Below, one piece after another: positions 1 to 55,358 of a stretch of 64,000 bases of DNA. Each line of letters opens with the position of its first letter. Position 1 is the stretch's first letter. The notes beneath the pieces are model-generated. The model did not search any database. It worked only from the letters and a program-made list of their open reading frames with translations, and had not been told where the DNA came from. Source of the DNA: Elusimicrobiota bacterium (lineage in GTDB: Bacteria; Elusimicrobiota; Elusimicrobia; UBA1565; UBA9628); NCBI GenBank assembly GCA_036676805.1, contig JAKFCD010000074.1, positions 40,072-104,071 of the forward strand, in the 5' to 3' direction. The translations under genes were made by a program, and so were the position numbers.

Positions 1-1160
1 TTCGTCTTGAAGAACTTCTCGAACTTCTGGTTGGAGCGCGCCGTCGCGATGGTCGAGTTGACCAGCAGCTTGAAGCCGCGGCCGACAGGCACGGCGAGGT
101 CGAAGAGGAAGTTGTCCTGTTCGAGGACCATCGCCTCGCCGAGATGGGTCCCCGCCGCATCCTGCGCGCGCCGCGAAAGATATTCGCGGCGGGTGTTGAG
201 GTAGGCGATCGCGAGCTCGACCTTGCGGCGGCCGAGCGTGAAGGCCGCGCGCGGCTGGAGGGAGCGCTCCTCGTAAGAGTAGTAATCGCTCGTGTAGCGC
301 ATCGTCTGGGCGTCGAAGTGGTTCTGATTGCTGTCGAGGCGCGTCCAGGAGCCGTTCAGATCGACGTATACGCCGCTCTCGGCGCCGAGGCGCCAGCCCC
401 GGCCGAGCGAGACGGCCGCGGATATAAGCCGGTCGGAGCGTCGCCGCGCCGTCAGGGAGCCCGACTCCTGGACGATGTTCTGCTCGGGATAGCCGCGGTC
501 GGTCAGGTTGACGACCAGGCGAGTCTTGACCCCCGGGATCGCGAACGGGAAGGCGGCGATGCCGGTCCAGGACAGGTTATTGGTGTCGAGCGTGCGTCCC
601 GAGGCCTGCTCGCGGCCGAGCCCCTGGCCCTTGACGCTGGACTCCAGCGAGCGGAAGTTCGGGAACTCGATGCGATACCAGTCCAGCGAGAAGCCGGCCG
701 TGACCGCCTCCGCGACGGCGTACTCCGCCTCGAGGCCGAGGGAAGGCTTGCGGAAGTCGAAGAGCCCCTTGCCCCATTTCTCGTCGTTGGTCTCGCGCAG
801 GAACTCCCACCGGTAGCCCGCCAGGGGCTTGAGCTTGAGCTTTCCGCGCCGCCAGACGCTCTTGAGGCGCAGGGAATGGCTCATCGAATCCTGGAACAGC
901 TGCCCGCCGCTGCCGAGGTCGGCGATGGACTGCGTGCCCTGGTAGGCGAAGGCGTAGGTCGGGATCAGGCCCCAGGTCTCGGAGAATTTCACGGCGGGCG
1001 TGAACTGCAGGCTCGCGTTGCCGTTCCAGGAGGTGGACTTGCCGTCCTGCAGGACTTGCCCGAGCAAAGCGGTGCCGCCGAAGACGGGGACGAACTCGGC
1101 GGCGCGCGCCGGTCCCGCCGCGGCGAGCGCGGCCGCCAATAGAAGAAGGGGGCGATTCAT
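1..1160 (-). CDS. outer-membrane beta-barrel protein, N-terminal part (the gene runs off the left edge of the window)
   Basis: ATG at 1160..1158 overlaps the TGA of the upstream gene (ATGA). Translation starts MNRPLLLLAAALAAAGPARAAEFVPVF, a signal peptide. Hand translation of 540-600 in the same frame gives GRTLDTNNLSWTGIAAFPFA with strong GC3 bias. The + ORF 144..1142 is its codon-aligned antisense shadow. It is absent from the ORF table because there is no stop inside the window. Confidence 0.6.
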   Translation of the reverse strand, partial: MNRPLLLLAAALAAAGPARAAEFVPVFGGTALLGQVLQDGKSTSWNGNASLQFTPAVKFSETWGLIPTYAFAYQGTQSIADLGSGGQLFQDSMSHSLRLKSVWRRGKLKLKPLAGYRWEFLRETNDEKWGKGLFDFRKPSLGLEAEYAVAEAVTAGFSLDWYRIEFPNFRSLESSVKGQGLGREQASGRTLDTNNLSWTGIAAFPFAIPGVKTRLVVNLTDRGYPEQNIVQESGSLTARRRSDRLISAAVSLGRGWRLGAESGVYVDLNGSWTRLDSNQNHFDAQTMRYTSDYYSYEERSLQPRAAFTLGRRKVELAIAYLNTRREYLSRRAQDAAGTHLGEAMVLEQDNFLFDLAVPVGRGFKLLVNSTIATARSNQKFEKFFKT

Positions 1161-2092
1161 CGCTCGCGGGGTCCTTTTGCGCCGCTCGGCGTGCCGAAGC
1201 GGTAGGTGATCGCGAAGAGATGCGAGCCCGCGATATCGCCGCCGGGGCCGAAGGCGTAATCGGCCTCGACGGGCCCGAAGCGGCCGCCCACGCCGACCTT
1301 GAGGCCGGAGAAGCGTCCCGCGTCGGGAGTCTTGGTGTTGAGGCCGGCGCGAAAGGCGACGGAATTGTCATCCCCGGAGAGGCGCGCCCGGTATTCTCCG
1401 CCGAGGGCCACGTGGAACGGGGCATAGGCGGGGGCGACGAGGTCGGCGACGACGCTCCAGCCCGGGCTCGGCCGCCAGGCGCCGCCGAAGGCCGCGCGCG
1501 CGGGCAGGGGGTTGGACTCCGACTCGAACTTGAGGCCGCCGCCGAGGTTGTGCCCCGAGGCGCCGACGGCCCAGTCGTCGCCGAGGTCGTATTGCGCGCC
1601 GAGGTCGAAGGCGGTCGCGCGCGCGGCGTCCACGATCTTGGACTCGACGCGCTTGATCGTCGCGGCCAGCCGCAGCTTCTCGCCGGCCGTCGTGCCGTAG
1701 CTCAAGGCGTAGACGGTGTCGCTGGGGCTGAAGCCGCCGGTGAGCGCGCCGCCGTCGTCGCGGCCCTCGAGGGTGCCGTAGCCGATGTGCCGGTAGGCCA
1801 GGCCGAAGCGGTGGACCCCGAACGCCCCGCCGTAGGCCAGGTGGTCGGCGCCGATGCCGTCGCCCAGGATCGAGTGGGTGAAGTACGCCTCATGCGCCGC
1901 GACGCCGTTGAGCGCGGCCGGATTGGTCGTCAAGGCTCCGGCTCCGGAGGCGCCGGCCTGGCCCGCGTCGCCCATGCCGGCGGCGCGGGCGTCGGGCTGG
2001 GTGTTGAGGAATTCGGCGGTCGCCAAGCGTCCCGCCGCCCGGGCCGAGAGGGCCGGGACGAAGAGCAGAACGGCAAAAAGATATTTCCTCAT
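1157..2092 (-). CDS. PorV/PorQ-like (UPF0164/FadL-superfamily-like) outer-membrane beta-barrel protein
   Basis: 311 aa with a signal peptide (MRKYLFAVLLFVPALSARA). The N-terminal motif ARAAGMGDAGQAGASGAGALTTNPAAL resembles the conserved PorV/PorQ-family motif and is shared with the 43845..45224 paralog. The sequence is Gly/aromatic-rich and beta-strand-like. The start overlaps the upstream stop and the stop overlaps the downstream start, both as ATGA. Confidence 0.6.
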   Translation of the reverse strand: MRKYLFAVLLFVPALSARAAGRLATAEFLNTQPDARAAGMGDAGQAGASGAGALTTNPAALNGVAAHEAYFTHSILGDGIGADHLAYGGAFGVHRFGLAYRHIGYGTLEGRDDGGALTGGFSPSDTVYALSYGTTAGEKLRLAATIKRVESKIVDAARATAFDLGAQYDLGDDWAVGASGHNLGGGLKFESESNPLPARAAFGGAWRPSPGWSVVADLVAPAYAPFHVALGGEYRARLSGDDNSVAFRAGLNTKTPDAGRFSGLKVGVGGRFGPVEADYAFGPGGDIAGSHLFAITYRFGTPSGAKGPRER

Positions 2093-5000
2093 CTTTGCAC
2101 CGCGAACTTGATCGTGCGCCGCCCGCCGGCCCCTTCGACGACGGCGAGATAGACGCCGCTGGCCAGCGCGCGCCCGTCCCGGTCGGTGCCGTTCCAGTTC
2201 AGGACCTGGCCCGCGGCGTCGGCGTCGAGCTCCTTGAGCAGGCGCCCCGTCGCGGTGAAGATCTTGATCTTCGCCCCCGCGGGCAGGCTCGAGAGCTTGA
2301 TGTTCACGTGCCCGCGGCTCGGCCGGAACGGGTTGGGGAAGACGAAGCCCTCCGCGACCGAGGCTCCGGGGGTCTGCGCGACGATCTGAAACAGCGAGAA
2401 ATGGTCCGTCGTGCCGACGACCTGGCGCGTCGCCGTGTCGGCCGCGCTGTCGAGCACGACCCAGCCGGTGGCCGCGTCGTAGCGGGCCAGGCGCAGGTGA
2501 TCGGGGTTGACGCCCGCCACGGCGGCGGGGGTGTAGCCGATCTTGATCGTCACCGGGCTCGCGGGCTGAAGGCCGCCGGCGGTGACCGAGATCGTCACGC
2601 CGAGGGCGCTCAGGCCGGGCCGCGCCGGCAGCGCCGGGACGGCCGAGGCGCCGGGCACGGTCACCGAGATCGTCGCGGGCGAGGCGAAGCCTCCCTGGGG
2701 CACGATGACCTCCGCGGAGGTGCCGCCCGCGAGCGCGGTCGTGATGGTGGCCGTGGCGCCCGCCGTCAGGCTGACGAACGCCGGCGCGCCGAGGGCGTAG
2801 ATGCCGTCGGGGTCGGAGACCTCGGCGGTGACCACGCCGGTGACGGAGTCGATCGCGGTCACGCCGTCGATCACCTGCTCGAAGACGCTCGATGCCTGGT
2901 TGAGCTTGAAGATGCGCATGACCGACAGCGGAACCAGGATCGACTGAGCCCCGTAGGCGCCGACGCTGATGCTTCCCGAGGTGACCACATAGGGCATGCT
3001 GACCGTGACGAGCCTGCTGCCCGCGCCGGCGGCCGTGGTCGGGCTCGAGTCGCGCACGGCCGAGAGCTTGAGCACCGTGGTCGAGACGAAGGTGTTGGCC
3101 GTCGCCGCGAACGCGGCGGTCGTGAGCGCGAGGTCGGCGGCCGGCAGCTCGTCGCGGCCCTGGATGCCCAGGCGGACGGCGAAGCCGTAGGTGTTGGCCG
3201 GAATGTCCGCGCGCAGTAGGGGATTGGCGAAGTTCACGACCGCTCCGCCCGCCGAGGTGACGAGCACGGTGGAATAGACCGTCGTGTCCCGCGCCAGGCT
3301 GCCGAGCGAGGCGCGCAGGAGGTTGGCCTGGGCGCTGAGGCTGTTCGTCGAGGAGAAGAAGGCCGTGGTCTGGCCGAAGGCGTCGGTGACCGCCTGGGTC
3401 GACGTCACGGCGGAGACGACCGAGCCGTTGACCAAGGACAGCGAGACGACGCCCGAGCCGGTCGCCACGGAGAAGGTCGCCGTCGAGTTGGAGACGGGGT
3501 TCGAGAAGCCGTCGAAGATCGTCGCGGTCAGCACGCTCGGCACGCCGGCGATGCTGGACTGGGGGTTGGCGAGCAGGGTGATCGAGGCGGGAGTCCCCGC
3601 GCCGACGACGGCGCTGTAGGTGGAGCGCCCGACGACGGACGCGCCGGTGTCCGAGGCGTTGATCAGGATGGCCTCGGCTTTCGTGTAGGTCTGGTTGGCG
3701 ATCGTGACGACGCCGTTGGCCGGCATGTTGACGTTCGTGACGCCGAGCACGCCCGCGCCAGCGAGGAGCGGGTTGCCCGCGTTGAGCGCCGAGAGCGATA
3801 TCGTCGCGGCGTAGCCGACGACCTGGACGCTCGACGCATCGACGGCGCGCACCGTCATCGAGAACGGGACTCCGGCCTGCGCTCCCGTGGGGACCGTGAC
3901 GATGAAGTGGTCGGGGCCCTGGATCGTCAGCGGGATCGAGCGGCCGTTTTTGCCGTCGGATGAGCGGCTGGCCTTGATGTCGATGTCCTCGACCTTGTTA
4001 TAGGTCTGAGCGGAAATCTGGAAACGGCCCGCGGTGAAGGCTCCCGTGACGTTGGTTCCAAGCGAGCCCGTGCCCTGGACGTTCGTGCCGGCGAACAGGG
4101 CGACGAGGTTCACGCCGCTCTCGGTATAAGAGGACAAGCGGTGGTTATAGGAGTTCATGGCCGTGATCGTGCTGACGAAGGCCACGCCGACCGACACGGG
4201 CACCGTCGGGACCGAGACCTCGTAATGGTCGACGCGGTTGCTCTCGATCAGGAAGAAGCTCGTCGCGGCGGGCACGCTCAGCGGCACGAAGGTGACCTGA
4301 CCCGTGAAGTCGTCGAACGTGTCGTAGGCGGTCATTATCGATCCCAGCCGCAGGGTGAAGCTCGCCCGGCCGGAGGCGTCCGTCACCGCTCCCGCGAAAT
4401 CACCGGTGCCTCCGATCGCCGGATCCATCGCCAGCTTCTCGAACGCCGCGCCGCCCGCGCGCGTGAAGCTCGAGACCGCGACGGGCACGTTCGGGACGGG
4501 GTTGCTGAAGGCGTCGAGCACGGTGACCGTCATCGTGGCGTAGCGCAGTTCCGAGTCGACCGACGACGAGGACCTGTCGACGGTGAAGCTCGCGGCGCGG
4601 ATCTCCCGCGTGCCCGCGGTCTGGTCGGGTCGCTGGGGAACGCTGACGGTGTGCGACGAGCTGAAGTTGCCGTAGGCGGCGAAGGTGTGAGCCGCGCTGA
4701 AAGCGCTGCTCAGGATGTCTTGACGGATCGTGAAGACGGCTATTCCAAGCGAGCTCGTGGGCGCGCGGCCGATCGAGGCGAAGGCGCCGTCCCACCGTGA
4801 ATAGGTCGTGATCGCGCCGAAGTTCTGCGAGTTCAGGCCGACGGGGATCTGCGGCAGCAGGGCCCCGGCCGCGTCGCGGACCGTGACCGTGGCGGTGATC
4901 ACGCGCATCGAGCCCTGCATCACGGGCGGGCCCGTGGCGACGGTCACCGTGGCGACGCGTTCCTCCCGCAGCACGATGGTCTGGTCGGGGAAGCTCAGCA

Positions 5001-7332
5001 CGCGCAAGGTCAGCGTTGAGGCCATGGCCGCATAGGCGGTCGGATCGACGCCCTGCAGGAATTCCTGGACGAAGAAGCTGGCCTGGCCCGAGGCGTTGGT
5101 CGCCGTGGTAAAGCCGACGGCGGTGGGCGTGATGGTGATGGGCGCCGGAGAGGCGGAGAAGTCGAGGGCGACCGGCACGTCGGGAACGACGGCGCCCAAG
5201 GAATCGCGAAGAGTGATCGTCACCGTCGAGATCCGGGCATAGTTGGAGCCGCTGATCTCGATGCCGGCCTGACCCGTCGAGAACTCGACGGTGGCGACGC
5301 GGTTCTCCCTCATCACGACCTGCTGCGGCGCCGAGCCGAGGCAAGCGACCGTGTGCGTCACGGCGTAGACCGCGTAGTTGTCGTTGTTGAGGCCCGCGAT
5401 GTCGTCGCCGAAGACGATCGCGGCCTGCCCCGAGCCGTTCGTCGTCCAGAAGACCTGGCTCGGCGACGCCGTCATGCTCGTCGAGCCGGGATACGGCGTG
5501 CCGGGCGCGCGCGAAATGCAGGGAATGTTGGACAGCGGCGCCGAGAGCGAATCCCGGACCGTGAAGGTCATCGTGGAGAAACGCACTTTTCCCGCCGCGC
5601 CCGCCAACGCGGACGGCGTCGTGGAGACGGAGACGGATGCGACGCGCGATTCCCTCAGATATAGGGCCTGAGAGGCGACGCCTGGGGTCGTGAAAACGAC
5701 CGTCGACACGACTCCATCGAGTTTGTCGGCCGTATAGCCGGCGGCGAACTCATGCTTGACGATGAAATCCGCCTGGCCGGCCGTATCGGTCAACAGGAAG
5801 CCGGTCGCGGAGGGGGAGATGGTCGGATTTGAAACGGTGCCGGGCGTGGTCGCGAAGTGATTGAGCTCGACGATGACCCCCGAGGATACCGCCGCTCCGC
5901 CGGCCTTCGTCACCGAAACGGTCGCGGTCGAGTACCAGAAGCCCGTCGCGCCGGAGATGGTCGCCGAGGCCGCGGCGGTGGATACGGCCAGGGCGGCGGC
6001 CTCGCTGTTCTCGAAGGCGAGTATCTGGCTCCCGTTGTGAAGGAAAACCCGGTTTCCCGGGGCGGGCACGGGCTGGCCGCTGAAGCAGGCGCTCGTGGAG
6101 ACCAGCACGTCCCATTGAAGGCTGCCGTTGGAAGCGTCGAGCGCGGCCATGCGGGTGCAGGTCCCCGCGCCGCTGCAGGCCGGCGTGGTTCCCGCGCAAT
6201 AAGTGAAATAGACGGATGTCCCGGCGGCCAAGGTGGGGGGGCCGATCGTGTTGACGGCGGCGGGCGCGCCGCCGGAGCCGGCGTCGTGCGTCCAGAGGGT
6301 GGCTCCCGTGTTGTCTATCTTGTAAATGCGCCCGTTGATGCCGGCGTTGCTCACAGCCGCGTAGGTGTTGAGCGCGGTGTCGGAGAGAAGAGACTGCGTA
6401 AATAACACGCTGCCGGAGCCTAGATCGAGGTCGCACTTGCGCCAGACCAGCGCGCCGCCCTGCGTGAAAGCGGCGAAGTGCTTGTTGCCCGTGGCATGCG
6501 CCGGGCATTCCGAGCTGAAATTAGCCTCGATGACGCTGAAGCTGTTGTCGCCGCGGAAGGAATAACCGAGCGACTTCGGCCCCACGATGGCCTGTGCCAC
6601 GGAAATGTCGGAAGCCGCGCCGGTCGCGGGGTTGTGGCATTCAAGGGAAAATACGCCGTTGCCCGACGAATTGCATATTCGGGAGAAAGTCGTGTCGAAG
6701 AAAATGGAGCCCCGTCCCAGACCGGAGATATGGCCGTCCGTATAGGACATCAGCGGCGTCAGATTCGGCGTGTATGCATACCCGTTGAACTGGGACGCGC
6801 CGAGGCTTGGGATGAGGGTCTCATCGCCGTGTGAGACGTGAATATTCCCATCGTTGGAGATCTTGACGGCCCCGCCTCCCCCGGGATTGGTGCCCGTGGT
6901 CCCCGCCGTGGCGGAGGAGACGAAGGTCACGGCGCCCGATCCGGCGGTGTTGTAGGCATACACGGCCGTCGGGCTGCTGACATAAACGCGCGAGTTGTCT
7001 CCTACCGCCGGGGAGCCCCAAGAGTCGCTGCCGCCGACGACTTCGTTGGCGGTCCATTTGACCGAGCCGTCGGGATTGAGCGCGAAGAACGCGGCGCGGC
7101 CTCCGATGTAGAGCGTCCCGTCGGAGCCGAGCACCACGCCCATCTTGGAGCGCGGATTCACGGCCGCGCCCGCGTATACCCAGCTGACCTTCGGATAGAC
7201 CACTCCGGAGAGCGTGGTGGTGCTGTTGTTCTGCGGATTTTGGCGCGTCATGGGCCACGCCGAATTATCCGGCCCGGCCGCAAACGCGGCGCCCGGGGCG
7301 AACAGGGCCAGCGCGAGGAGGAGCTTCCTCAC
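2089..7332 (-). CDS. giant secreted surface protein: N-terminal PQQ/BamB-like beta-propeller, more than 8 Ig-like (Big/invasin-type) repeats, and a T9SS-type (Por_Secre_tail/FlgD-Ig-like) C-terminal domain
   Basis: 1747 aa with a signal peptide (MRKLLLALALFAPGAAFAAG). The N-terminus carries repeated YIGG...LNPDGSVKW and VYVSS...YAYN propeller-like motifs. The middle carries repeated ~100-aa units with RVATV.V and RD..G..LP.VPV patterns. The C-terminus FVFPNPFRPSRGHVNIKLSSLPAGAKIKIFTATGRLLKELDADAAGQVLNWNGTDRDGRALASGVYLAVVEGAGGRRTIKFAVQR matches the type A T9SS CTD consensus. Confidence 0.8.
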   Translation of the reverse strand: MRKLLLALALFAPGAAFAAGPDNSAWPMTRQNPQNNSTTTLSGVVYPKVSWVYAGAAVNPRSKMGVVLGSDGTLYIGGRAAFFALNPDGSVKWTANEVVGGSDSWGSPAVGDNSRVYVSSPTAVYAYNTAGSGAVTFVSSATAGTTGTNPGGGGAVKISNDGNIHVSHGDETLIPSLGASQFNGYAYTPNLTPLMSYTDGHISGLGRGSIFFDTTFSRICNSSGNGVFSLECHNPATGAASDISVAQAIVGPKSLGYSFRGDNSFSVIEANFSSECPAHATGNKHFAAFTQGGALVWRKCDLDLGSGSVLFTQSLLSDTALNTYAAVSNAGINGRIYKIDNTGATLWTHDAGSGGAPAAVNTIGPPTLAAGTSVYFTYCAGTTPACSGAGTCTRMAALDASNGSLQWDVLVSTSACFSGQPVPAPGNRVFLHNGSQILAFENSEAAALAVSTAAASATISGATGFWYSTATVSVTKAGGAAVSSGVIVELNHFATTPGTVSNPTISPSATGFLLTDTAGQADFIVKHEFAAGYTADKLDGVVSTVVFTTPGVASQALYLRESRVASVSVSTTPSALAGAAGKVRFSTMTFTVRDSLSAPLSNIPCISRAPGTPYPGSTSMTASPSQVFWTTNGSGQAAIVFGDDIAGLNNDNYAVYAVTHTVACLGSAPQQVVMRENRVATVEFSTGQAGIEISGSNYARISTVTITLRDSLGAVVPDVPVALDFSASPAPITITPTAVGFTTATNASGQASFFVQEFLQGVDPTAYAAMASTLTLRVLSFPDQTIVLREERVATVTVATGPPVMQGSMRVITATVTVRDAAGALLPQIPVGLNSQNFGAITTYSRWDGAFASIGRAPTSSLGIAVFTIRQDILSSAFSAAHTFAAYGNFSSSHTVSVPQRPDQTAGTREIRAASFTVDRSSSSVDSELRYATMTVTVLDAFSNPVPNVPVAVSSFTRAGGAAFEKLAMDPAIGGTGDFAGAVTDASGRASFTLRLGSIMTAYDTFDDFTGQVTFVPLSVPAATSFFLIESNRVDHYEVSVPTVPVSVGVAFVSTITAMNSYNHRLSSYTESGVNLVALFAGTNVQGTGSLGTNVTGAFTAGRFQISAQTYNKVEDIDIKASRSSDGKNGRSIPLTIQGPDHFIVTVPTGAQAGVPFSMTVRAVDASSVQVVGYAATISLSALNAGNPLLAGAGVLGVTNVNMPANGVVTIANQTYTKAEAILINASDTGASVVGRSTYSAVVGAGTPASITLLANPQSSIAGVPSVLTATIFDGFSNPVSNSTATFSVATGSGVVSLSLVNGSVVSAVTSTQAVTDAFGQTTAFFSSTNSLSAQANLLRASLGSLARDTTVYSTVLVTSAGGAVVNFANPLLRADIPANTYGFAVRLGIQGRDELPAADLALTTAAFAATANTFVSTTVLKLSAVRDSSPTTAAGAGSRLVTVSMPYVVTSGSISVGAYGAQSILVPLSVMRIFKLNQASSVFEQVIDGVTAIDSVTGVVTAEVSDPDGIYALGAPAFVSLTAGATATITTALAGGTSAEVIVPQGGFASPATISVTVPGASAVPALPARPGLSALGVTISVTAGGLQPASPVTIKIGYTPAAVAGVNPDHLRLARYDAATGWVVLDSAADTATRQVVGTTDHFSLFQIVAQTPGASVAEGFVFPNPFRPSRGHVNIKLSSLPAGAKIKIFTATGRLLKELDADAAGQVLNWNGTDRDGRALASGVYLAVVEGAGGRRTIKFAVQR

Positions 7333-8972
7333 TGGAGGACCCCGGCCTTGATCAGAATCTTGGGCTCGACGACGAAGTCGATGCTGCGCCCGCCGAACTC
7401 GGAGGCGGTGATCTTCTGCTGGAAATTGTGCTCGATGAGCTTCTCTTTATACGTCGCCCCGCTCGTCACCCCGCTGAAGTCCGCCTTCGTGGCCACCCGC
7501 CCCTCGTCGGAGACGACGAAGAAGTCGTAGGTCTCGAAGGAGTTGTCCGCCGTGTACGTGATCGTGACGCGGTCGTGGAAGGTGCCGGCGCCCGACGGCT
7601 TGCTGATGACGCTGGTCCGCAGCGCGTCCTCGCACGCCTGCCCCGCGCAGACGTTGGTCCCGGCGCCGTTCCAGACGCGGGTGTTGATCCCGCCGACGGC
7701 GTAGTCATAGGAGGTGATGTTCGCCCCGGCCGCCGGCTGCCAGCCGAACTTCTCGGTCCCGTTGATCTTGTAGGAGTAATTGTCGAATAAGGTGGTCCAG
7801 AAGGCGGTCCCGGCCGTCTCCGTGGTGAAGGTGTTGGTCTGCCCGTCATAGGCGACCCGGTCGGCCGCGAGCGGCGCGTTGACGAGGTGCCCGCCGATGC
7901 CGGTCTCGATGACGGTGTCCCGGGTGTTGGAGCGGCCGGTCTCGAACTCGGTGACGAAGTACTCGGGAGCGGCGCCGGACTTGCCCGTCAGGTGGCGCGT
8001 CGCCGCCGTCAGGTCGGCCGGCAGGTCCTGGTTGAAGCGGGCCTGGTAGTAGAAGTAGTCGAAGCGATCGGCGCGCTCGGAGAGCGCTACGAGCTTGAAT
8101 TGGTCGGCGGCGGGGCGCACGACGTACTCCTCGAGGCGCACGCGCACGCCGAAGGCGTCGATGAGGGTCTTGCCCTCCTGGTATTCGGCCCGGCGGGCCT
8201 CGACGGCGGCGGCGGCCTGGACGGCCTCCTTGGACTGCCCCAGAGCGACTTCCCGCTCGACCTCCTTGCGGAACTCGTCGTCGACCGAGAGGGGGGCGCT
8301 CGTTTCCTTCTGTTCCTTCGGTTTGCGGACGGCGGCGATGATCTTGGGCGCCGGAGCGGCTTTCGGGGCGGGAGCCTTGGCGGGTGGGGCGGCGGCGGCG
8401 CGCTCGGCCGCGCGCTCGAGGGGCTGGTCGGGCAGGACCCGGATCGAGCGCATCGTGCGCCCGTCGCCGAGCTCGATCTCCTCGCCGAGCAGGGTCTTGA
8501 CCCCGACGACGCCCTCGCTGACGTCGATCAAGGTCGCGCGCGAGGCCGCGACGTCCACCGAGAACTGCGTGCCCCGCACCGCGCACACCGCGGTCGGGGT
8601 GCGGACCTGGAAGCGGCGGTTCAGGGACTTGGTGACCCAGGCCTTGAGCGTGCCCAGAGCGAGCTTGAAATGGGCCGGGCCGCCGGCCTCGGCCGAGGAC
8701 TCCGCCTCGAATTCCGAGGACGCCCCCAAGAGAATCTTCGAGCCGTCCCGGGTCTCCAGGGCGGCCGTCGACCCGCCTCCCGTGCGCACCTTGTCGCCTT
8801 TCTGCACGCGCCAGGGAACTTCGTTGACCCGGCTCCAGGACTGGGTGCGCGGCAGGAAGACCTCGACGTTGCCCTGCCGGGCGACGATGTCGACCTGGGC
8901 CCGGGAGGCCGTCGCGATGATAAGAGCGGCGATCGCGGGGAGGAGGACCCGCAATCTGAGGGGCGAATTCAC
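7329..8972 (-). CDS. FecR-domain secreted protein (N-terminal FecR fold, Ala/Pro/Lys-rich linker, C-terminal domain of unknown function)
   Basis: 547 aa with a signal peptide (MNSPLRLRVLLPAIAALIIATASRAQV). The FecR-like block reads WRVQKGDKVRTGGGSTAALETRDGSKILLGASSEF...AVRGTQFSVDV. Its stop overlaps the start of the giant protein (ATGA). Confidence 0.65.
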   Translation of the reverse strand: MNSPLRLRVLLPAIAALIIATASRAQVDIVARQGNVEVFLPRTQSWSRVNEVPWRVQKGDKVRTGGGSTAALETRDGSKILLGASSEFEAESSAEAGGPAHFKLALGTLKAWVTKSLNRRFQVRTPTAVCAVRGTQFSVDVAASRATLIDVSEGVVGVKTLLGEEIELGDGRTMRSIRVLPDQPLERAAERAAAAPPAKAPAPKAAPAPKIIAAVRKPKEQKETSAPLSVDDEFRKEVEREVALGQSKEAVQAAAAVEARRAEYQEGKTLIDAFGVRVRLEEYVVRPAADQFKLVALSERADRFDYFYYQARFNQDLPADLTAATRHLTGKSGAAPEYFVTEFETGRSNTRDTVIETGIGGHLVNAPLAADRVAYDGQTNTFTTETAGTAFWTTLFDNYSYKINGTEKFGWQPAAGANITSYDYAVGGINTRVWNGAGTNVCAGQACEDALRTSVISKPSGAGTFHDRVTITYTADNSFETYDFFVVSDEGRVATKADFSGVTSGATYKEKLIEHNFQQKITASEFGGRSIDFVVEPKILIKAGVLQ

Positions 8973-9028
8973 CCGTGAAGTATAAGGGGGGCTTCCGGGG
9001 GTGTCAATGTCGTAAAAGTTACGAGAAG

Positions 9029-9055
9029 CCCCCCGGCCGCTTAGCGGCCGGGGGG
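9029..9055. terminator. GC-rich hairpin terminator downstream of cspA
   Basis: Perfect 12-bp stem CCCCCCGGCCGC / GCGGCCGGGGGG with a 3-nt loop, 20 nt after the cspA stop. On the cspA (minus) strand it is followed by a moderately T-rich tract. Confidence 0.55.
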
Positions 9056-9075: not shown

Positions 9076-9276
9076 TTAGAGCTTGACGACGCCGGCGGCC
9101 TTCGGGCCCTTGTCGGTCTGAAGGAGATCGTACTGGACGGCCTGGTTCTCGCTCAAGGAGCGGAATCCGTCGGACTGGATCGCGCTGTGATGCACGAACA
9201 CGTCCGCGCTGCCGTCATCGGGGGTGATGAACCCGAAGCCCTTCTGGTCATTGAACCACTTCACTTTGCCTTGCAT
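9076..9276 (-). CDS. cspA: cold-shock protein, CspA family
   Basis: [66 protein letters not shown] is 66 aa with the RNP1/RNP2 motifs. The true start is the internal Met of the 104-aa table ORF. Confidence 0.95.
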
Positions 9277-22425: not shown

Positions 22426-24780
22426 CTACTGCGCGCTGACCTTGTAGACGATCCCGCGGCGCAGGACCGTCACCTCGGAGCCGAGCGCGAAGTAGCGCGC
22501 GAGTCCGGGGTCCTTGGACAGCAGGTCGAAATACGCGGCGCCGCTCGCCGCCACCGCGACCGTGCGCCGCGACGAGGCCTCCGGGGCCTCGGCGTCCGCG
22601 TCCACCCAGGTTTCGCCGCGCTTGTAGAAGGTCTTGCCCCCGACCGTGCGGGTCTCCACCGAGGAAAACCCCTTGCTCCTGTTCTCGTCGCGGGCCTTCT
22701 TTTCGAGCTTGGCCAGCATGATCCCCGGGGCCGCCGGGGCGGCCCCGCGCAGGGCGGCGACCGAGGAGGGGGCGCCTTTCATCGCGCCGAAGGCCATCGA
22801 GTCGGACTGGGCCTCGGCCGCCGCGCCGGAGCCGCCGAAGAAGCCGCTTCGCGCCGCGTTGGACGACAGCATGTCGAACCGGCGCCGGCCCTCCCGCTCG
22901 GCCAAGCGCATGTCCGTGCCTTCCTCGGTGACGAGAAACGAAGTGTAGGGCGTCACGATCCCGTGCTTCTTGGCCAGGCGCACGATGGAGGAGACGACCT
23001 CCGGGTCGGCCGGGCGCCCGGAGAGGCGGATCATGTCGAGCTCGTGGCCGATCTTCTGCGAGGCCCACAGACGGGGCAGGAAGGCGTGGCGCGAGGCCTC
23101 GGCGGGCAGCTCCACCGGGAACTCGAAGCGCATGGGCTTGCCGTTGGCCTTGCCCGTCACCGCGACGGTCCCTTTGCCGCCGGCGCGGAAGCGCCCGTAC
23201 AGCGCCAGCTCGCCGCCGTGGAACAGGTCGGGCACGGGCTTGGGGAAGACCTGGTCGACCTCGACGCCGTTCCACGCGACCTTCACGTCGGTCAGCGCCG
23301 GGCGGGAGACCTTCTGATAGAGGGAGGAGACCTTGGCCTCGATGTCCTCGTTGGGCGCCACGTAGTCGCGGGCCCCGCGGCCGGCCTCGGCCAGTTTGTC
23401 GAGGAGCAAGGTGTTCACGTCCGAGCCCACGCCGAAGGAGAAGACGCGGGCGCGCAGGGAGGCGTTGTCCGCGGCGGCCTTGCGCAGGATCGCGCCGGGG
23501 TCGGTCTGGCCGATCGTGGGGACGCCGTCGGTCAGGAAGAACAGCATCGGCGCGGCTCCGCCCGCCGTGTTGAGGAGCTTGAGTCCCCGGTCGAGGCCGG
23601 CCTCGATGTTGGTGCCGCCCGCGGCCTCGATGCGCTCGATGTAGCGCCTGGCCCGGGCCTTGTTCTCGGGCGTCGCGACGAGCAGGGCGCCTTCCTCGAG
23701 CGCGTTCCAGTCGGTCGCGAAGTCCACCACGCCGAAGCGGTCCTGCGGATTTAGGCGGTCGACGCACCACGCCAGCGCCTTCTTGGCCTGGTCCATCTTG
23801 CCGCCCTCGGTCATCGAGCCGGAGCGGTCCACGACGAACACGACGGCCTTCGGCGCGGCCTTGGCCTCGGCCTCGATCTTGGGCGACAGGGTCAGCAGGA
23901 AGGTGCCGTCCTCGCCGCTCTCGCGGTAGGCGAGCACGCCGGCCGCGAGCGGGTCCTCGCGCATCGAGAAGGTCAGCGCCAGGTCCTGGGGACCCGAGGA
24001 CCCCTCCTCGAAGGAGACCGACGCCTTGCGTTCGCCCTCCCGGACGATCCTTGTTTCGGCGTTTGATGAAATTATCGTGCGAAGGGGGCGCGTCGTGTTC
24101 AGCACGATGCGCGCCGAGGCCTTGCCGCCCTCGCCCTGGGTGAAGCGCGCCGAACGCATCGGCACGGACAGGGAGACGAGCCCGCCGTTCTTGGCCAAGG
24201 TCTGCGTCATCTTGAGCGTCGCGACGATCTCGCCGCGAGGCTCGATGGGGAACACCTTCGCGCGGAACATGCGCTCGCCGATGAGCTCGAGCAGCCCGGG
24301 GTCGATGGCGCGGCTGACGATGCTCTGGTAGATGGAGGCCGCCTGCGCCGCCTCGAGCAGCTCGCCCTTGGTCTCCTTGCCGCCGATCACCATCGAGAAC
24401 CCCGAGAGCGAGGCGTCGGCGGGCAGCGGCACCATCAGCACGCCCTCGAGGCGGCGGTCGGTGGGGTTGCGGAAGACGATGCGGTAGGACAGCTCGGCCA
24501 CCTGGTCCGTGATCGTGCCCTCGACATGATAGGCGGCCATCGTGACCGGCGAGGCCTCGGGGGGGAGCACCGGCGAGGGGCGCGGCCCGGGGATGGGCAG
24601 CGGCCGCGGAAGCGGATGGGGACGGGGCCCCGGCAAGAGCGGATGGGGCATGGGCATTCCGGGCAGGAAGGAGCGCAGGGCGGAGCTTGCGGCGCCGATG
24701 GGCCAGGCGAGCAGCTGCTGCGACGAGGCGGGCGCGGCGAGGCCGAGAACGAGCAGGACGGACAGGGCGTGGCGTTTCAT
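22426..24780 (-). CDS. secreted VIT (vault protein inter-alpha-trypsin) plus von Willebrand factor A domain protein
   Basis: The start is at MKRHALSVLLVLGLAAPASSQQ, a signal peptide. It carries a proline-rich linker and a VIT region. The VWA MIDAS motif reads VVFVVDRSGSMTEGGKMDQAKKAL. The 56-aa upstream extension in the table is rejected. Confidence 0.8.
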   Translation of the reverse strand: MKRHALSVLLVLGLAAPASSQQLLAWPIGAASSALRSFLPGMPMPHPLLPGPRPHPLPRPLPIPGPRPSPVLPPEASPVTMAAYHVEGTITDQVAELSYRIVFRNPTDRRLEGVLMVPLPADASLSGFSMVIGGKETKGELLEAAQAASIYQSIVSRAIDPGLLELIGERMFRAKVFPIEPRGEIVATLKMTQTLAKNGGLVSLSVPMRSARFTQGEGGKASARIVLNTTRPLRTIISSNAETRIVREGERKASVSFEEGSSGPQDLALTFSMREDPLAAGVLAYRESGEDGTFLLTLSPKIEAEAKAAPKAVVFVVDRSGSMTEGGKMDQAKKALAWCVDRLNPQDRFGVVDFATDWNALEEGALLVATPENKARARRYIERIEAAGGTNIEAGLDRGLKLLNTAGGAAPMLFFLTDGVPTIGQTDPGAILRKAAADNASLRARVFSFGVGSDVNTLLLDKLAEAGRGARDYVAPNEDIEAKVSSLYQKVSRPALTDVKVAWNGVEVDQVFPKPVPDLFHGGELALYGRFRAGGKGTVAVTGKANGKPMRFEFPVELPAEASRHAFLPRLWASQKIGHELDMIRLSGRPADPEVVSSIVRLAKKHGIVTPYTSFLVTEEGTDMRLAEREGRRRFDMLSSNAARSGFFGGSGAAAEAQSDSMAFGAMKGAPSSVAALRGAAPAAPGIMLAKLEKKARDENRSKGFSSVETRTVGGKTFYKRGETWVDADAEAPEASSRRTVAVAASGAAYFDLLSKDPGLARYFALGSEVTVLRRGIVYKVSAQ

Positions 24781-24831
24781 GTGAGCTCCTCCGTAACGAG
24801 GAGTACGACACGCCCGGCGGGATAAGGTTCC

Positions 24832-24850
24832 AACTGTTTCCAGAAACAGT
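24832..24850. promoter_or_regulatory. palindromic motif aaCTGTttccagaaACAGt (CTGT-N8-ACAG), copy 1
   Basis: It is located 52 nt upstream of the VIT-VWA start and 27 nt after the anti-sigma stop. It is identical over 18 bp to the reverse complement of 61332..61350. Confidence 0.5.
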
Positions 24851-24877
24851 CGGCGCCGTCCCCGACTCGGAAGGGCG

Positions 24878-26011
24878 TTATTCGGCGAGCTTGACGACGA
24901 CCGGCTTGGAGGAAAGCGCCGCGGGGCGCACGCGGGCGGAGGGATCATCGAAGCCTGAGGCCTTATAAAGGACCACCAGGAGCTTCTTTCGGTTCTGGAT
25001 GCCCGTGATGCCGCAGCCCTCGGGTCCGGCGAGGAAGACCGCCATCTGCTCGGGGAATTTCACCGCCGGCGGCTCGCCCGGCAGCCCGGCGGCGGCCCAG
25101 GCGGCCGCGAGCGCTTCGGCGCTCTTGAGCGTGAGGGCCTTCACGGCCGGAGCCCCGGCCTTGGACCGGGCGGCGCCCCTCACGGCGGCGATGGAGGGGC
25201 GGCCCTCGACGCGGGCCGCCTCGGGGGAGGCTTGCAGCGCCATGAACTCGCGCCCGCCGGAGGGCAGCCTGTCCGAGCCCTCGTCGCGGTCCATGATCTT
25301 GGCGATGCCCATGCGCTTCTTCTCCTCCTCGAAGCCCTTGTAGAGCCGCTCGTTGATGGCGGAGCGCTCCTCCTCGCTGCGGGCGAGCAGGGCGCCTCCG
25401 CCCGCGCCGGGCGCGGGAGCCGCGGCTTCGTCGATCTCGAGCGGCTTGCCCGGAGCGCTGAGGTTCTTGCCGACGGTCGAAGGCGCCGCGGGCTTGTCGT
25501 CGGCCGCGTCCTCCTTCTTCGCCTGGAGCTCTTGGGGCTCCGCCGCGCTTTCGGGGACGCCCTTGCCGCCGGCGCCCATGGCCGACAGCGCGCCGCTGAC
25601 GTCGATCGAGGGGGGCGCGTCCGCGGCGCTCTTGACCGAGACGACCTCGCTGTCCCAGCCCGCGCGCGGCTCCAGGACGTCGGGCTTGCTTAAAGTCCGG
25701 TCCCAGACGACGAGTGCCACCACCGCGGTCGACAGCGCGAAGGCGAGGGGGCGGTAGGAGGGCGGCAGGATGAAGTATTCTCGTTCGGGGGCGACGTCGC
25801 GGGCGCGGCGGGCGTCCAGGCGCGCGGCGAAGCCGGCGGGCAGCGGCTCCTTGGGCAGCCCCTTGACCGCCGAGGAGACGGCGCGCAGGCCCTCGAGCTC
25901 GAGGCGCAGCTCCTCCGAGCGCGAGATCTCCACCTCGACGGCCCGGCGCTCGGCGTCGGGAAGCGCGCCGTCGAGATAGGCGGACAGCTTTTCGCGGATG
26001 TCGTCGTTCAT
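24878..26011 (-). CDS. anti-sigma factor (zf-HC2/RskA-like N-domain, one TM helix, periplasmic C-domain)
   Basis: The start MNDDIREKLSAYLDGALPDAERRAVE overlaps the sigma-gene stop (ATGA). The TM helix is LAFALSTAVVALVVW. Total length is 377 aa. Confidence 0.8.
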   Translation of the reverse strand: MNDDIREKLSAYLDGALPDAERRAVEVEISRSEELRLELEGLRAVSSAVKGLPKEPLPAGFAARLDARRARDVAPEREYFILPPSYRPLAFALSTAVVALVVWDRTLSKPDVLEPRAGWDSEVVSVKSAADAPPSIDVSGALSAMGAGGKGVPESAAEPQELQAKKEDAADDKPAAPSTVGKNLSAPGKPLEIDEAAAPAPGAGGGALLARSEEERSAINERLYKGFEEEKKRMGIAKIMDRDEGSDRLPSGGREFMALQASPEAARVEGRPSIAAVRGAARSKAGAPAVKALTLKSAEALAAAWAAAGLPGEPPAVKFPEQMAVFLAGPEGCGITGIQNRKKLLVVLYKASGFDDPSARVRPAALSSKPVVVKLAE

Positions 26012-43844: not shown

Positions 43845-45224
43845 TCACGGCTTCGCGGCGGGCGTCCGCTGGAGCTCCTCGACCTTGAGGTCCTCCTGGG
43901 CCTTGTCGGCCGCCTTGCGGATCGTCTCCGTGGAGGCGGGCTGATCGTCCGCCGGAGGGGCGGCTTTCCATTCGCGCTTGGGCGCCGCGGGCTCCTCGTC
44001 GGCGCCGCCGAAGAGAAAGCTCAACTGGAAGCCCAGGGCCAGCTCGCGGGGCATCTTCTTCTGCTCGCCCTGGCTCTCGGTGGTCACCCGCTTGCCGCTG
44101 ACCGCGGCCGAGGCCTCGAGGGTCACGTGCAGGAAGTTTAGGCCGGCGCCGAGCGTGAGCACGTTGCCGGCCGAGGGCTCCGCGGTGTTGCGCATCAGCC
44201 CGACGCGCAGGGGGATGTTGAGCCAGGAGCGGTTGAACACGTTGAACTCGCTGCCCACGCCGAACTGGCGGCTGGCGGCGTTGTCGACGGGCGTGAGGTT
44301 GCGCGTCAGGTCGAGGTCCGCGGCGAGGTTCCACCAGCTGAGGGGAGTGATCGACGCGCCCAGGCGCACCTGCGGGTTCACGGCGAAGCGGCCGGGCAGG
44401 CCCGCCGCGGCGGCCGCCGCGGGCCGATTGAACTTGGGGTTGTTGAGGTTGCGGCCGACCACGCCGACGCGGGGCTTGAGCGCCATGCCGCCGAAGCTGC
44501 GGTCGAGGTCCCAAAGCGCGCCGGCGTCCACGCCGAAGCTCGAGCTCCTGGCCGCGCCGTCCTTGAGCTTGTCGATGATGTCGTCCTGGCTGTTGTCGTT
44601 GCGCAGGACGAAGTAGTCGGCGTGGCCGACCTGGGCGTTCATGAGCTTCAGGGCCCCCCCGAGGTACAGCCCGGGCGCGAAGGGCAGCTCGCGGCCGTAC
44701 GCGGCGCCGAGCTCGGCGATGTTGGCGCCTTTGACGATGAGCTTGGAATTGTTGGTGCCGTTCTGTATCTCGGGCGCGGTCGCGTTGTTGCGGTCCACCT
44801 GCGGCACCGCGCCGATATGGCTGAAGCCGTTGAGGAAGGCGGCGAATCGGCCCATCTTCAAGTCGGCCCCGAAGCCGCCGTCCACGCGCAGGCCGCTGCC
44901 GGGCTGGTCGAATTTATTGAGGGCGTCGTTGATCTCGCCGTCGGTCGGGGCCGTGCCGCGGTCCCTGAGATTCTCGAGGTTATTGGCGCCCTCGATCACC
45001 GAGCCGGTCACCGCGGCGTGCACGCCGAGAGGGATGGCCAGGCCGTTCTGGGACGGCCGCCCGAGCGCGCCCGGGTTCCAATACGCGGCCAGCGGCCCCT
45101 TCGTCGAGGCGACGCCGGCGCCTCCCATTCCGACGGAGCGCGCGCCCAGGGCGTGCCATTCGAGGGCGGAGGCGGGCGCGGCGGCCAGCAGCAGGGCGGC
45201 GAGGGGGAAAAGGGATGCTTTCAT
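43845..45224 (-). CDS. PorV/PorQ-like (UPF0164/FadL-superfamily-like) outer-membrane beta-barrel protein, paralog of 1157..2092
   Basis: 459 aa with a signal peptide. The N-terminal motif GARSVGMGGAGVASTKGPLAAYWNPGAL is shared with the 1157..2092 protein. It has beta-barrel character and a C-terminal Glu/Lys-rich tail. Confidence 0.6.
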   Translation of the reverse strand: MKASLFPLAALLLAAAPASALEWHALGARSVGMGGAGVASTKGPLAAYWNPGALGRPSQNGLAIPLGVHAAVTGSVIEGANNLENLRDRGTAPTDGEINDALNKFDQPGSGLRVDGGFGADLKMGRFAAFLNGFSHIGAVPQVDRNNATAPEIQNGTNNSKLIVKGANIAELGAAYGRELPFAPGLYLGGALKLMNAQVGHADYFVLRNDNSQDDIIDKLKDGAARSSSFGVDAGALWDLDRSFGGMALKPRVGVVGRNLNNPKFNRPAAAAAAGLPGRFAVNPQVRLGASITPLSWWNLAADLDLTRNLTPVDNAASRQFGVGSEFNVFNRSWLNIPLRVGLMRNTAEPSAGNVLTLGAGLNFLHVTLEASAAVSGKRVTTESQGEQKKMPRELALGFQLSFLFGGADEEPAAPKREWKAAPPADDQPASTETIRKAADKAQEDLKVEELQRTPAAKP

Positions 45225-53191: not shown

Positions 53192-55218
53192 AAGCGCGAG
53201 GGCGGGCAGAAGGCTCGCGTGCTGGTCGGTCCAGGCCGCCGCGCGAGAGGGTCCCACGCCCAGGGCGCGCCACCCCCGCTTCTCGACGAGCGTATCGATC
53301 GCCGCCGCGTCGCGGCTGACGGCCACCCACACCGACGGCACGCTGCCTCCGCCGGGAACGCCCGCGGACAGCTGGCGCTTGGCGGCGGCGGAGAGGCCGA
53401 GGTCGCGCGCCGCCGCGCCGAGCACCGGGCGCAGGTCGAGGTAGCGGTTGGAGACGTGCACGAGGATCACGCCGTCCGGCTTGAGGCGGCCGAGGTAGGA
53501 GGCGAAGGCTTCCTTGGTGAGCAGGTGAATGGGGATGGAGCCGCTGCTGAAGGCGTCGAGTATGAGGCCGTCGTAGGAGGCGCCCTCGGCGCGCTCGAGG
53601 GAGAGCCGGCCGTCGCCGGTCACGACGCGGACCGTGGACGCGCTGCGGCTCAGGTAGGTGAAGGAGCGCTCGGCGATGACGGCCACGTCGGGGTCGAGCT
53701 CGTAGAAGTCCATCGCCATGCCGGGGCGGCCGTAGGCGGCGAGGCTGCCCGCGCCGAGGCCGACGACGCTGACGGTGGTCCACCGGGCGCCGAGCGCCTG
53801 CCACGCCTCCCCGAGGGGGGAGTCGTAGCCGTAATAGGACAGCGGCTCGTCCTGCCGGGCGGGGTCGAGAAATTGCATGCCGTGCTCGGTGTTCCCGTGG
53901 AACATGCTGCGTACGCCCTCCTCGTCGCGGACCGAGTAGACGCCGTAGAAATTGCGCAGGCTGTAGACGGCGCCGGAGCGGGTGCCCGCCGCGCCGATCG
54001 CGCCGGCGACGGTCAGCGCCAGGACGCCCAGCGCCGCCGTCGCCTTGCGGTTCGCGACGACCTGCTCCCAGTCCCGCGCGAGGATCGCGGCGACGGCCGC
54101 GGCCGCGACGGCCGCCCAGTCCAGGGCCACCGCGCCGACGCCGCGGCCCAGAAACGGCACCGCGAGCGCGATGAGCACGCTGCCGAACAGGCCGCCCGCG
54201 GCGATCCAGCTGTAGTACTCGGCCATCGCACGCTCCGACGAGGGACGCGCGACGGCGAGCGAGCGGTGGAAGATCATGCAAAGCGCGAAGAGAGCGAAGA
54301 GCATGTAGCCGAACTTGCCGACGTCGAGCGCGCGGCTCAGGATCTGGGCCGGGGTCGCATCCTGGGCGAACCAGAAGGCGAGGCCGAAAGGGACCAGGCA
54401 CAGCGCGAGCCAGAAGGCGAAGGCCGGGAGCATCGCCCGGTTCAGGCGCTCGGGATACCAGGGCTCGCGCTTGAAGTTGAGGACGAAGGTGAGCAGATAG
54501 GTCGCGAGCGGGGCCGTCCAGAGCAGGGGCACGGCGGCGAAATCCAGGCTAAGGAGATTCGTCGCGGCGAGCAGCGCCGCGCAGGGCGCGGCGCTGAGCA
54601 GCAGCCACAGCGCGCGCTGCCGCGGCGACGGGGCGGGACCCGAGGAGGACGGGGCGGGCGCGGGACCTCGGGGGGCGCAGAAGAAGCACAGCGCCGCGTA
54701 CGCGGCGTAAAGGCCGCGCCAAAGCCAGCCTTGGGCGCTCAGGGCGAGCAGAGGCTCGATGGCGAGCGGATAGGCGACCAGCGCGCAGGCCGCGCCCGCG
54801 TTGGAGGCGGCGAACAGGAAGTAGCCGTCGGCGCGCTCCGCGCACGATGTCCTCATAAGCCAGCTCTGGGCGACCACGACCGTCGTCGAGAGGACGAAGA
54901 ACGGCGGGCCGACCGAGAGGAGCAGAGCCAGGAAAAGCTCGGCGAAAGGAGCCGAGGCCGCGGGCGCGGCCGGCAGAGCCAGGGGGAGGAAGAAGAATGG
55001 AATGGCGAGCGCGACGGCGTGCGCGCGCGGGTGAAGGCGCGCCCGGCGGCCGTAGAGGTAGGCCGCGAGCAGCAGGGCTTGAAAAAACATCATCGCGCCG
55101 GTCCATACGTAGGCGCTGCCGCCGAAGCGGGGCAGGAGCAGCTTGGCGGCGGCCAGCTCCAGGCAGAAGGCGAGGAAGGAGCCGAGGAACGCGAGGGCCT
55201 GGAAACGCAGTCTCTGGG
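53189..55218 (-). CDS. fused polytopic membrane domain plus C-terminal spermidine-synthase-like (PABS fold) protein
   Basis: About 10 TM helices, then VVGLGAGSLAAYGRPGMAMDFYELDPDVAVIAERSF...RVVTGDGR...YDGLILDAFSSGSIPIHLLTKEAF. The start is uncertain: TTG near 55218, or a downstream ATG (MMFFQ) at about 55059. The table start 55387 runs into the AT-rich promoter region and the divergent gene. Confidence 0.7.
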
Positions 55219-55358
55219 GCAACCCGGACAGTGTATATATTTCTAAAACTTGCCCGGACGGGCGCTCTTGCGCTCGCGGCGCAACGGGGCTACAGTCTGC
55301 AGGGAACTTAGCGGCCGCGACGTTGTCCAAATCGCATCCTATGCCCGGTGAGAGCGCC

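Follow-up and report, generated by a model that had tools for sequence, protein, structure and literature searches.

The window analysed here, a 64,000-nucleotide stretch of contig JAKFCD010000074.1 from Elusimicrobiota bacterium, encodes on its minus strand a 1747-amino-acid (aa) protein, hereafter the giant, which probably (at roughly 55%) acts as a large cell-surface adhesin displayed by a self-contained four-gene cassette, with its tail docked in a barrel of its own and its chain possibly self-cleaved. The evidence for this overall reading is comparative-genomic throughout. From the N- to the C-terminus, the giant comprises a signal peptide, a variable propeller, an eight-unit stalk, a conserved base, a domain marked by the motif H-F-S (the H-F-S domain) and a C-terminal domain (CTD) similar to the type A CTDs of type IX secretion systems (T9SS). 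The open reading frame (ORF) exists as called in the original prediction, whose three-part architecture of propeller, immunoglobulin (Ig)-like repeats and sorting tail is essentially right, and the adhesin role that it considered probable is still the best functional guess.

The tail of the giant passes TIGR04183 (31.7 bits against a cutoff of 23, residues 1664-1746) and, in the Pfam scan proposed with the original prediction, FlgD_ig (33.1 against 27), and its best NCBIfam match is the C-terminus of PorZ (44.7 bits). It fails Pfam Por_Secre_tail (PF18962; 17.1 against 27), so that the assignment to type A sorting CTDs holds while the earlier epithet "textbook" is too strong. The CTD is 72-92% identical between relatives, and a hidden Markov model (HMM) of it detected the same tail type in no other protein of the window. 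Directly downstream lies a gene for a 311-aa protein with a signal peptide and an N-terminal ARAAGMG...NPA motif, which scores 121.2 bits (cutoff 90) against NF033709, the PorV/PorQ family of outer-membrane barrels; its sole PDB match is Flavobacterium johnsoniae PorV (6h3i_F, E 8e-4), and its identity between relatives is 57-87%. The more specific identities of PorQ and PorV proper were rejected, as the protein fails both equivalog cutoffs (NF033711, 79.1 against 220; NF033710, 37.6 against 250). A second, more distant PorV/PorQ-like gene is present at 43845..45224 (minus strand), encoding 459 aa with GARSVGMGGA...YWNPGAL and scoring 43 bits against NF033709, under the cutoff of 90. No tail-bearing protein is encoded directly upstream of it; the closest ORF on that strand (46218..48827, 869 aa) contains an HExxH motif (AEHENGHYW) and matches no family.

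The same combination of a large protein bearing the tail and a PorV-like barrel is seen again with unrelated cargo proteins. Neighbourhoods were examined for PorV-like proteins down to 30% identity and for the tail-bearing protein P0005, with exact-sequence look-ups of P0005, P0018, P0021, P0023, P0025, P0030 and P0031, yielding seven cargo families: the window group and those of loci L087/88, L089, L083-85, L090, L091 and L092. Each of the seven has the PorV-like gene immediately downstream of a gene for a protein of 1086-2152 aa with a signal peptide, the two genes overlapping by 4 bp in nine of the ten loci. The CTD HMM matches the cargo protein of every family (E 1e-14 to 1e-49), while the passengers are unrelated, including a PQQ propeller with Big_1, CarboxypepD_reg/PEGA, fn3, Laminin_G_3 and PepSY/FTP. 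P0005, for example, shares with the giant only the last 207 aa of the latter. A protein with a FecR domain still accompanies the pair at L089, where the likeness to the giant is also limited to the tail (31.5% identity over the full length). P0005, a cargo of 1582 aa, has upstream of it a gene (L083:1-678) whose product ends in the same tail type (E 2e-19), and one PorV-like barrel may thus serve two adjacent cargos there.

In the window, the pair belongs to a chain of four signal-peptide genes linked by 4-bp overlaps, which encode the FecR-domain protein, the giant, the PorV/PorQ-family barrel and a 401-aa barrel-like protein, and the same gene order is found at L001, L002, L086 and L087. The FecR domain (PF04773, E 1.3e-16, 61 bits, residues 60-156) follows a cleavable-looking signal peptide, and the protein is kept at L001, L087 and L089. 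Canonical FecR anti-sigma regulators consist of a cytoplasmic anti-sigma domain, one transmembrane helix and a periplasmic FecR domain; this identity was rejected for the 547-aa protein because a signal peptide precedes its FecR domain and the FecR equivalog fails (14.9 against 385), its best NCBIfam matches being Leptospira LipL45/Lsa lipoproteins. The fourth gene, 401 aa in relatives and ending in ...GFAYNY, shows a weak OMP_b-brl match and has no relative in NCBIfam or PDB.

The family of the giant is rare. A search of 5.8 billion protein clusters returned four full-length sequences at 72-100% identity, three of which (72-87%) are relatives besides the giant itself, and a scan of species-representative genomes with the giant's alignment returned none. 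A more distant relative of 2084 aa (36-51% identity) was reached through the neighbouring gene. Source names for relatives of the neighbouring PorV-like gene are Elusimicrobia or Elusimicrobiota, whereas MetK gave an ambiguous placement, at 60-68% identity to Elusimicrobiota, Zixibacteria, Omnitrophota and Acidobacteriota alike. One relative is carried by the complete genome CP096137.1, described in its genome paper as 3.8 Mb with 68.6% G+C and assigned to order UBA1565. At this nanopore-only locus (L086, CP096137.1 3314205-3335140), the giant is called as pieces of 564, 97 and 847 aa and the FecR-domain gene is also split; these splits are most likely homopolymer frameshift errors rather than signs of pseudogenes. 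In the window itself, the third-position G+C (GC3) of the giant ORF is 0.90, like that of the other genes, at an overall G+C of 69%. Read by eye, its N-terminus is a typical signal peptide, MRKLLLALALFAPGAAFA, with cleavage before AG, which is also kept in the relatives at L001 and L087.

It is unlikely that the giant is an ordinary T9SS cargo, that is, one secreted through a SprA/Sov translocon with the help of a general PorV shuttle, freed of its CTD by the sortase PorU and linked covalently to anionic lipopolysaccharide. The TIGR04183 cutoff is passed, the best NCBIfam matches of the tail are those of T9SS components and the adjoining gene belongs to the PorV/PorQ family, all of which speaks for this reading. 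However, a systematic survey found the T9SS only in Bacteroidetes (PMC4793230), and the literature search returned no paper tying Elusimicrobia to this system. None of the Pfam families of SprA, PorK/L/M/N, PorU and PorP was detected in the 64-kb window or in the Elusimicrobiota-type loci of about 20 kb, and a barrel gene for each cargo, as seen in seven of seven families, would be superfluous with a single general shuttle.

Individual elements of known T9SS assemblies nevertheless offer the closest parallels. The PorZ tail remains uncleaved and bound to PorQ (PMC10202324), and type B CTD cargos (SprB-SprF and PG1035-PorP-PorE) have a genetically linked shuttle or anchor barrel to which they are attached non-covalently and independently of PorU, with a periplasmic partner (PMC9143113, PMC12618676). 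Like PorZ-PorQ and the cargo-PorV pairs of Bacteroidota, the giant combines a type A-like C-terminal Ig-like domain with a PorV/PorQ-family barrel of the 14-strand type; unlike them, it occurs in an Elusimicrobiota host with no T9SS core seen in the window and loci, and its barrel gene directly follows the cargo gene, one per cargo. The linkage of a cargo to its own barrel gene resembles SprB-SprF and PG1035-PorP-PorE, but the tail of the giant is type A/FlgD_ig-like, its barrel belongs to the PorV/PorQ rather than the PorP/SprF family, and the partner is a FecR-domain protein instead of the PorE that accompanies PG1035 and PorP.

Another possibility, to which only a small probability can be given, is that the giant stays in the periplasm, with the barrel being a FadL/UPF0164-type transporter unrelated to anchoring and the FlgD Ig-like domain having a merely structural role. 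PorV-family proteins do share Pfam matches with the FadL/Toluene_X and UPF0164 families, and BamB, the structural match of the head described below, is itself periplasmic. Yet cargo and barrel genes remain adjacent in all seven families, mostly with 4-bp overlaps, despite the unrelated passengers, and the tail passes a T9SS sorting-domain model, both of which speak against this possibility.

The domain preceding the CTD suggests how such a protein might be released. An exhaustive profile search with residues 1031-1660 recovered 428 representative proteins, about 100 of which match residues ~1515-1660 alone. The passengers of these H-F-S-domain proteins are diverse (FG-GAP, fn3, NHL, beta-helix, Big_7), and the proteins close with a FlgD_ig, Por_Secre_tail or CHU_C-like tail, the distance from the end of the domain to the C-terminus being 82-96 aa in about 90% of 106 copies (median 84 aa). 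The consensus reads LVLARYD-x5-WVPL-x-S...V-x-A-x-T-D-H-[F/L]-S-L-F-Q-I-M; among 93 domain copies, the W is present in 92, the H in 88, F or L in all 93, the S in 90 (with T in two more) and the next F in 88. The giant has H1644-F1645-S1646 at this place (nucleotides 2395-2403). H-F-S is present in five of the seven cargo families, the protein of L091 having no such domain and that of L087/88 having S-F-S. The latter is the 2084-aa relative (L087:3750-10004 and L088), in which the motif stands within TDSFSLFEIV, indicating that the catalytic histidine is not universal in the domain family. S-F-S is also the motif of the autoproteolytic site in the FIIND of NLRP1 and CARD8.

Judged by motif and position against the published description, the H-F-S domain is probably of the MAIN (microbial GAIN) type. 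MAIN domains are cut between F and S of an HFS (HX(S/T)) motif located in the last beta-turn of the domain, and the fragments remain associated after the cut, as shown for Bacillus subtilis YfkN (Brogan and Rudner, bioRxiv 10.64898/2026.05.12.724683). According to the same preprint, the domain always has an ectodomain for adhesion or enzyme activity on one side and a surface anchor on the other; T9SS, PorV and Elusimicrobia are not mentioned there, and co-occurrence with FlgD_ig is given as 6 of 15,000 proteins. The giant has the HX(S/T) motif in H1644-F1645-S1646 and follows the described order of signal peptide, adhesion or enzyme domains, MAIN and anchor, with the CTD as the anchor. Like MAIN proteins such as YfkN, it is very large and combines a signal peptide, a large adhesion ectodomain, H-F-S with a hydrophobic strand and a surface anchor, and Ig-like and PQQ_2 domains are listed among the partners of MAIN as well. 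The anchors of MAIN proteins, however, are sortase signals, cell-wall-binding domains or SLH domains, mostly in Bacillota, whereas the giant would use a T9SS-like tail and a barrel in a diderm; cleavage has been shown for YfkN, while for the giant both a MAIN fold and cleavage are putative. Adhesion G-protein-coupled receptors (GPCRs), with GAIN and GPS (HL|T), offer a similar arrangement of adhesion domains, an autoproteolytic-type motif, a single retained beta-strand and a membrane anchor. They are anchored by a seven-transmembrane domain rather than through an outer-membrane barrel partner, and the giant has neither their canonical cysteines nor significant sequence similarity to them.

Haloarchaea carry the H-F-S domain as well, as does a Bacillota protein (50 bits, STEHFSMFSIL), a distribution in keeping with the phyletic range of MAIN. 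The Bacillota protein is an unannotated ORF of Acetoanaerobium noterae (L093:4218-6887, NZ_CP154629.1), in which about 580 aa follow the domain and the order is inverted, an N-terminal zinc-ribbon and transmembrane helix (the anchor) preceding the H-F-S domain. The domain is further found away from any CTD: P0184 (3349 aa) has four internal H-[F/L]-S domains, each followed by calcium-binding thrombospondin-type-3-like DxDxDG repeats, and P0069 (469 aa) has three in tandem followed by a C-terminal transmembrane helix.

At the other end of the giant, residues ~20-441 form a beta-propeller that, in the structural model, is closest to BamB and pyrroloquinoline quinone (PQQ) enzymes. Pfam and NCBIfam scans of the whole giant gave no propeller match and recognised the tail alone, so that the BamB/PQQ-like propeller originally placed in the first ~450 aa is supported not by Pfam but by the AlphaFold2 (AF2) model and Foldseek. 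The model of residues 1-460 (predicted local distance difference test, pLDDT, 66; predicted template modelling score, pTM, 0.69) has 28 strands in seven or eight blades, and its Foldseek matches in PDB are designed propellers, BamB, tetrathionate hydrolase and PQQ methanol and alcohol dehydrogenases, with a target-normalised template modelling score of 0.70-0.74 against BamB (E ~1e-13). Blades of PQQ_2 proteins align again and again with residues 26-200. A protein with 39% identity, whose alignment spans 94% of the N-terminal region, bears the name PQQ-binding-like beta-propeller repeat protein, and Pfam PQQ_2 matches relatives of the giant though not the giant itself. In contrast to BamB, on which the head superposes, the propeller is here fused to a stalk. 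Identity between relatives rises from head to tail, from 40-55% in the propeller, the least conserved and fastest-evolving part, to 72-93% in the base and tail, a gradient that is consistent with an exposed head and a docked base.

These structural matches raise the question of whether the propeller might be an enzyme, PQQ-dependent dehydrogenase- or tetrathionate-hydrolase-like, and the giant a tethered or secreted exoenzyme instead of an adhesin. The presence of such enzymes among the Foldseek matches and the frequency of enzyme domains in MAIN proteins (bioRxiv 10.64898/2026.05.12.724683) would agree with this, but the top matches, BamB and designed propellers, are non-catalytic, the enzymes are only 10-15% identical, no catalytic family passes its threshold in Pfam or NCBIfam, and the propeller evolves faster than any other part of the protein. 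An enzymatic head is thus rather improbable, and a ligand-binding propeller remains the preferred reading.

Self-comparison of the protein, a check suggested earlier, together with iterated HMMs, recovered eight tandem units between residues 442 and 1358. The original prediction of at least eight tandem units of ~100 aa over ~1100 aa is therefore correct in number, while the span is 917 aa; the ~300 aa of residues 1359-1660, which had been counted among the repeats, are not repeats. The Ig-like label likewise applies in part. Five type-A units (442-560, 561-675, 676-789, 790-909 and 910-1028; 115-120 aa each, HMM E 1e-31 to 1e-40) are probably of the Big_1 type: of 16 type-A copies taken from three relatives, 11 match Pfam Big_1 (best E 4e-6), and copies also match BIg21, Invasin_D3 and MG4, all under the Pfam gathering cutoffs (Big_1, PF02369, whole-protein score 18.9 against 34.9). 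The eighth unit resembles Big_1 weakly, and the two type-B units (1032-1140 and 1138-1245) match no family in Pfam, Big_1 included, or in PDB, and show no detectable relationship to type A (hhalign probability 1.7%). Relatives of type B occur in up to 17 copies in other giant proteins with Filamin, MG4, Big_1 and Invasin_D3 Pfam matches, by which association an Ig-like fold is likely for them as well. As predicted, the repeats are diverged and not nucleotide-identical, with units 23-38% identical (self-comparison and alignment to the first copy) and no tandem repeat at the nucleotide level in the gene. Invasin/intimin-type Big_1 arrays are comparable in that the type-A repeats match Big_1, Invasin_D3 and BIg21, but the giant has neither LysM nor a beta-barrel of its own. 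The number of repeats varies, the 2084-aa relative having six type-A and four type-B units compared with five and two in the giant. A lattice-forming S-layer or sheath protein, which the earlier term "S-layer-like" would imply, is highly improbable. The giant is large, beta-rich and repeat-rich, and the type-B profile has a marginal PDB match to an S-layer protein (E 0.22), but neither SLH nor any other S-layer family is matched in Pfam or NCBIfam, the family of the giant is rare, and its tail suggests that single molecules dock one to one. A repeat number varying between 5+2 and 6+4 is also easier to reconcile with a stalk than with a lattice.

Taken as a surface adhesin, the giant would be exported by the Sec pathway and then reach the cell surface, where its CTD would dock non-covalently in the dedicated 311-aa barrel, as PorZ does on PorQ and SprB on SprF, and the stalk would hold the propeller away from the cell for ligand binding. 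The MAIN-type H-F-S domain, if autoproteolytic, would be cut between F1645 and S1646, leaving a 1626-residue ectodomain held by just one beta-strand on a 102-residue stub (S1646-R1747), from which force could subsequently detach it. The FecR-domain protein and the 401-aa barrel-like protein may act as accessory envelope partners. Several points weigh against this scheme. The proposed binding of CTD and barrel is deduced solely from the adjacency of their genes and from analogy. The window and the loci examined, to which the scan for T9SS core genes extended, yielded no outer-membrane translocon. The AF2 model of residues 1031-1747, built from a five-row alignment, has a pLDDT of 36 and gives no usable structure for the type-B repeats, for residues 1359-1514 or for the H-F-S domain. 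In PDB profile searches, a match to the GAIN domain of ADGRB2 (E 0.39) disappeared with a better profile, and the H-F-S motif falls in register with the HLT of ADGRL3 at 3.2 bits, a score equalled by 10 of 2000 shuffles; homology of the H-F-S domain to eukaryotic GAIN/GPS is accordingly not established.

Several further features surround the cassette (Table 1). The promoter-like site stands only 6 nt before the GTG of the FecR-domain gene, which points to a transcript with no leader or a very short one, or to a start codon located further downstream. The cold-shock gene has a strong promoter-like site of its own (TTGACG-16-TATAAT with TG) and a terminator-like hairpin at 9022-9035. A protein with VIT and VWA domains recurs near the cassette, in the window at 22426..24948 (minus strand, 840 aa) and at L002:8371-10704 (777 aa), where its gene lies directly downstream of that for the 401-aa protein. 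Contrary to the earlier statement, the ORF of the giant is exceeded in size within the window; an alpha-2-macroglobulin ORF of up to 2059 aa is longer, and would still exceed 1970 aa if started past the overlapping upstream gene. Its 5' end overlaps a gene on the opposite strand encoding a 732-aa fusion similar to major facilitator superfamily (MFS) and spermidine-synthase proteins, so that its true start may be further downstream.

Table 1. Coordinates of the giant and its domains, the cassette and other features of the window
Feature	Position	Strand	Basis or remarks
Giant gene	2089..7332	minus	1747 aa; GTG start at 7332, TGA stop at 2089-2091
Signal peptide, residues 1-19	7276..7332	minus	Read by eye; without lipobox cysteine
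BamB/PQQ-like beta-propeller head, residues ~20-441	6010..7275	minus	AF2 model; Foldseek against PDB
Five type-A Ig-like repeats (Big_1/invasin-like), residues 442-1028	4249..6009	minus	HMM, Pfam
Two type-B repeats of ~108 aa, residues 1032-1245	3598..4239	minus	HMM
Eighth unit, residues 1246-1358, 113 aa	3259..3597	minus	Weakly Big_1-like, E 0.0012
Conserved region, residues 1359-1514	2791..3258	minus	82-93% identity among close relatives; no family assignment
Pre-CTD (H-F-S) domain, residues ~1515-1660, probably MAIN-type	2353..2790	minus	Profile search and motif
CTD, FlgD Ig-like/T9SS type A-like, residues 1661-1747	2092..2352	minus	TIGR04183, FlgD_ig; ends in KFAVQR
PorV/PorQ-family outer-membrane barrel gene	1157..2092	minus	311 aa, signal peptide; start overlaps stop of giant by 4 bp
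FecR-domain protein gene	7329..8972	minus	547 aa, signal peptide; stop overlaps start of giant by 4 bp
Fourth cassette gene	1..1160	minus	386 aa here, cut by window edge; signal peptide, barrel-like
Promoter-like site TTGACA-17-TATACT	8979..9007	minus	11 of 12 consensus positions; 6 nt ahead of FecR-gene GTG at 8972
Cold-shock protein gene	9076..9276	minus	Directly upstream of cassette; also at L001 and L086
Alpha-2-macroglobulin ORF	55143..61322	plus	Domains MG2, A2M_BRD, A2M, bMG10

Taken alone, the giant is an ordinary though rare multidomain surface protein, and its interest lies in its context. Sorting tails of the T9SS type are annotated by the thousands outside Bacteroidota, and we know of no machinery that reads them; the pairing of such a tail with its own PorV-like barrel, in a phylum without a described T9SS, would offer a concrete answer to this puzzle and bears on the origin of the T9SS shuttle proteins. 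A tentative generalisation, which we consider possible yet doubtful, is that Elusimicrobiota, and probably other diderm phyla, possess a T9SS-independent display-and-release module in which a self-cleaving MAIN-type domain is fused to a T9SS-like CTD and the latter plugs into a PorV/PorQ-family barrel encoded directly behind the cargo; at the outer membrane, such a module would correspond to the MAIN proteins anchored by sortase or SLH and to adhesion GPCRs. MAIN domains have recently been proposed as the Gram-positive counterpart of autotransporters (bioRxiv 10.64898/2026.05.12.724683). With about 100 diverse proteins carrying the motif domain before a T9SS-like tail, the module, if real, would mean that outer membranes, too, can shed adhesins and enzymes in a force-dependent manner, and it could represent an ancestral cargo-barrel unit from which PorV, PorQ and PorP/SprF were recruited.

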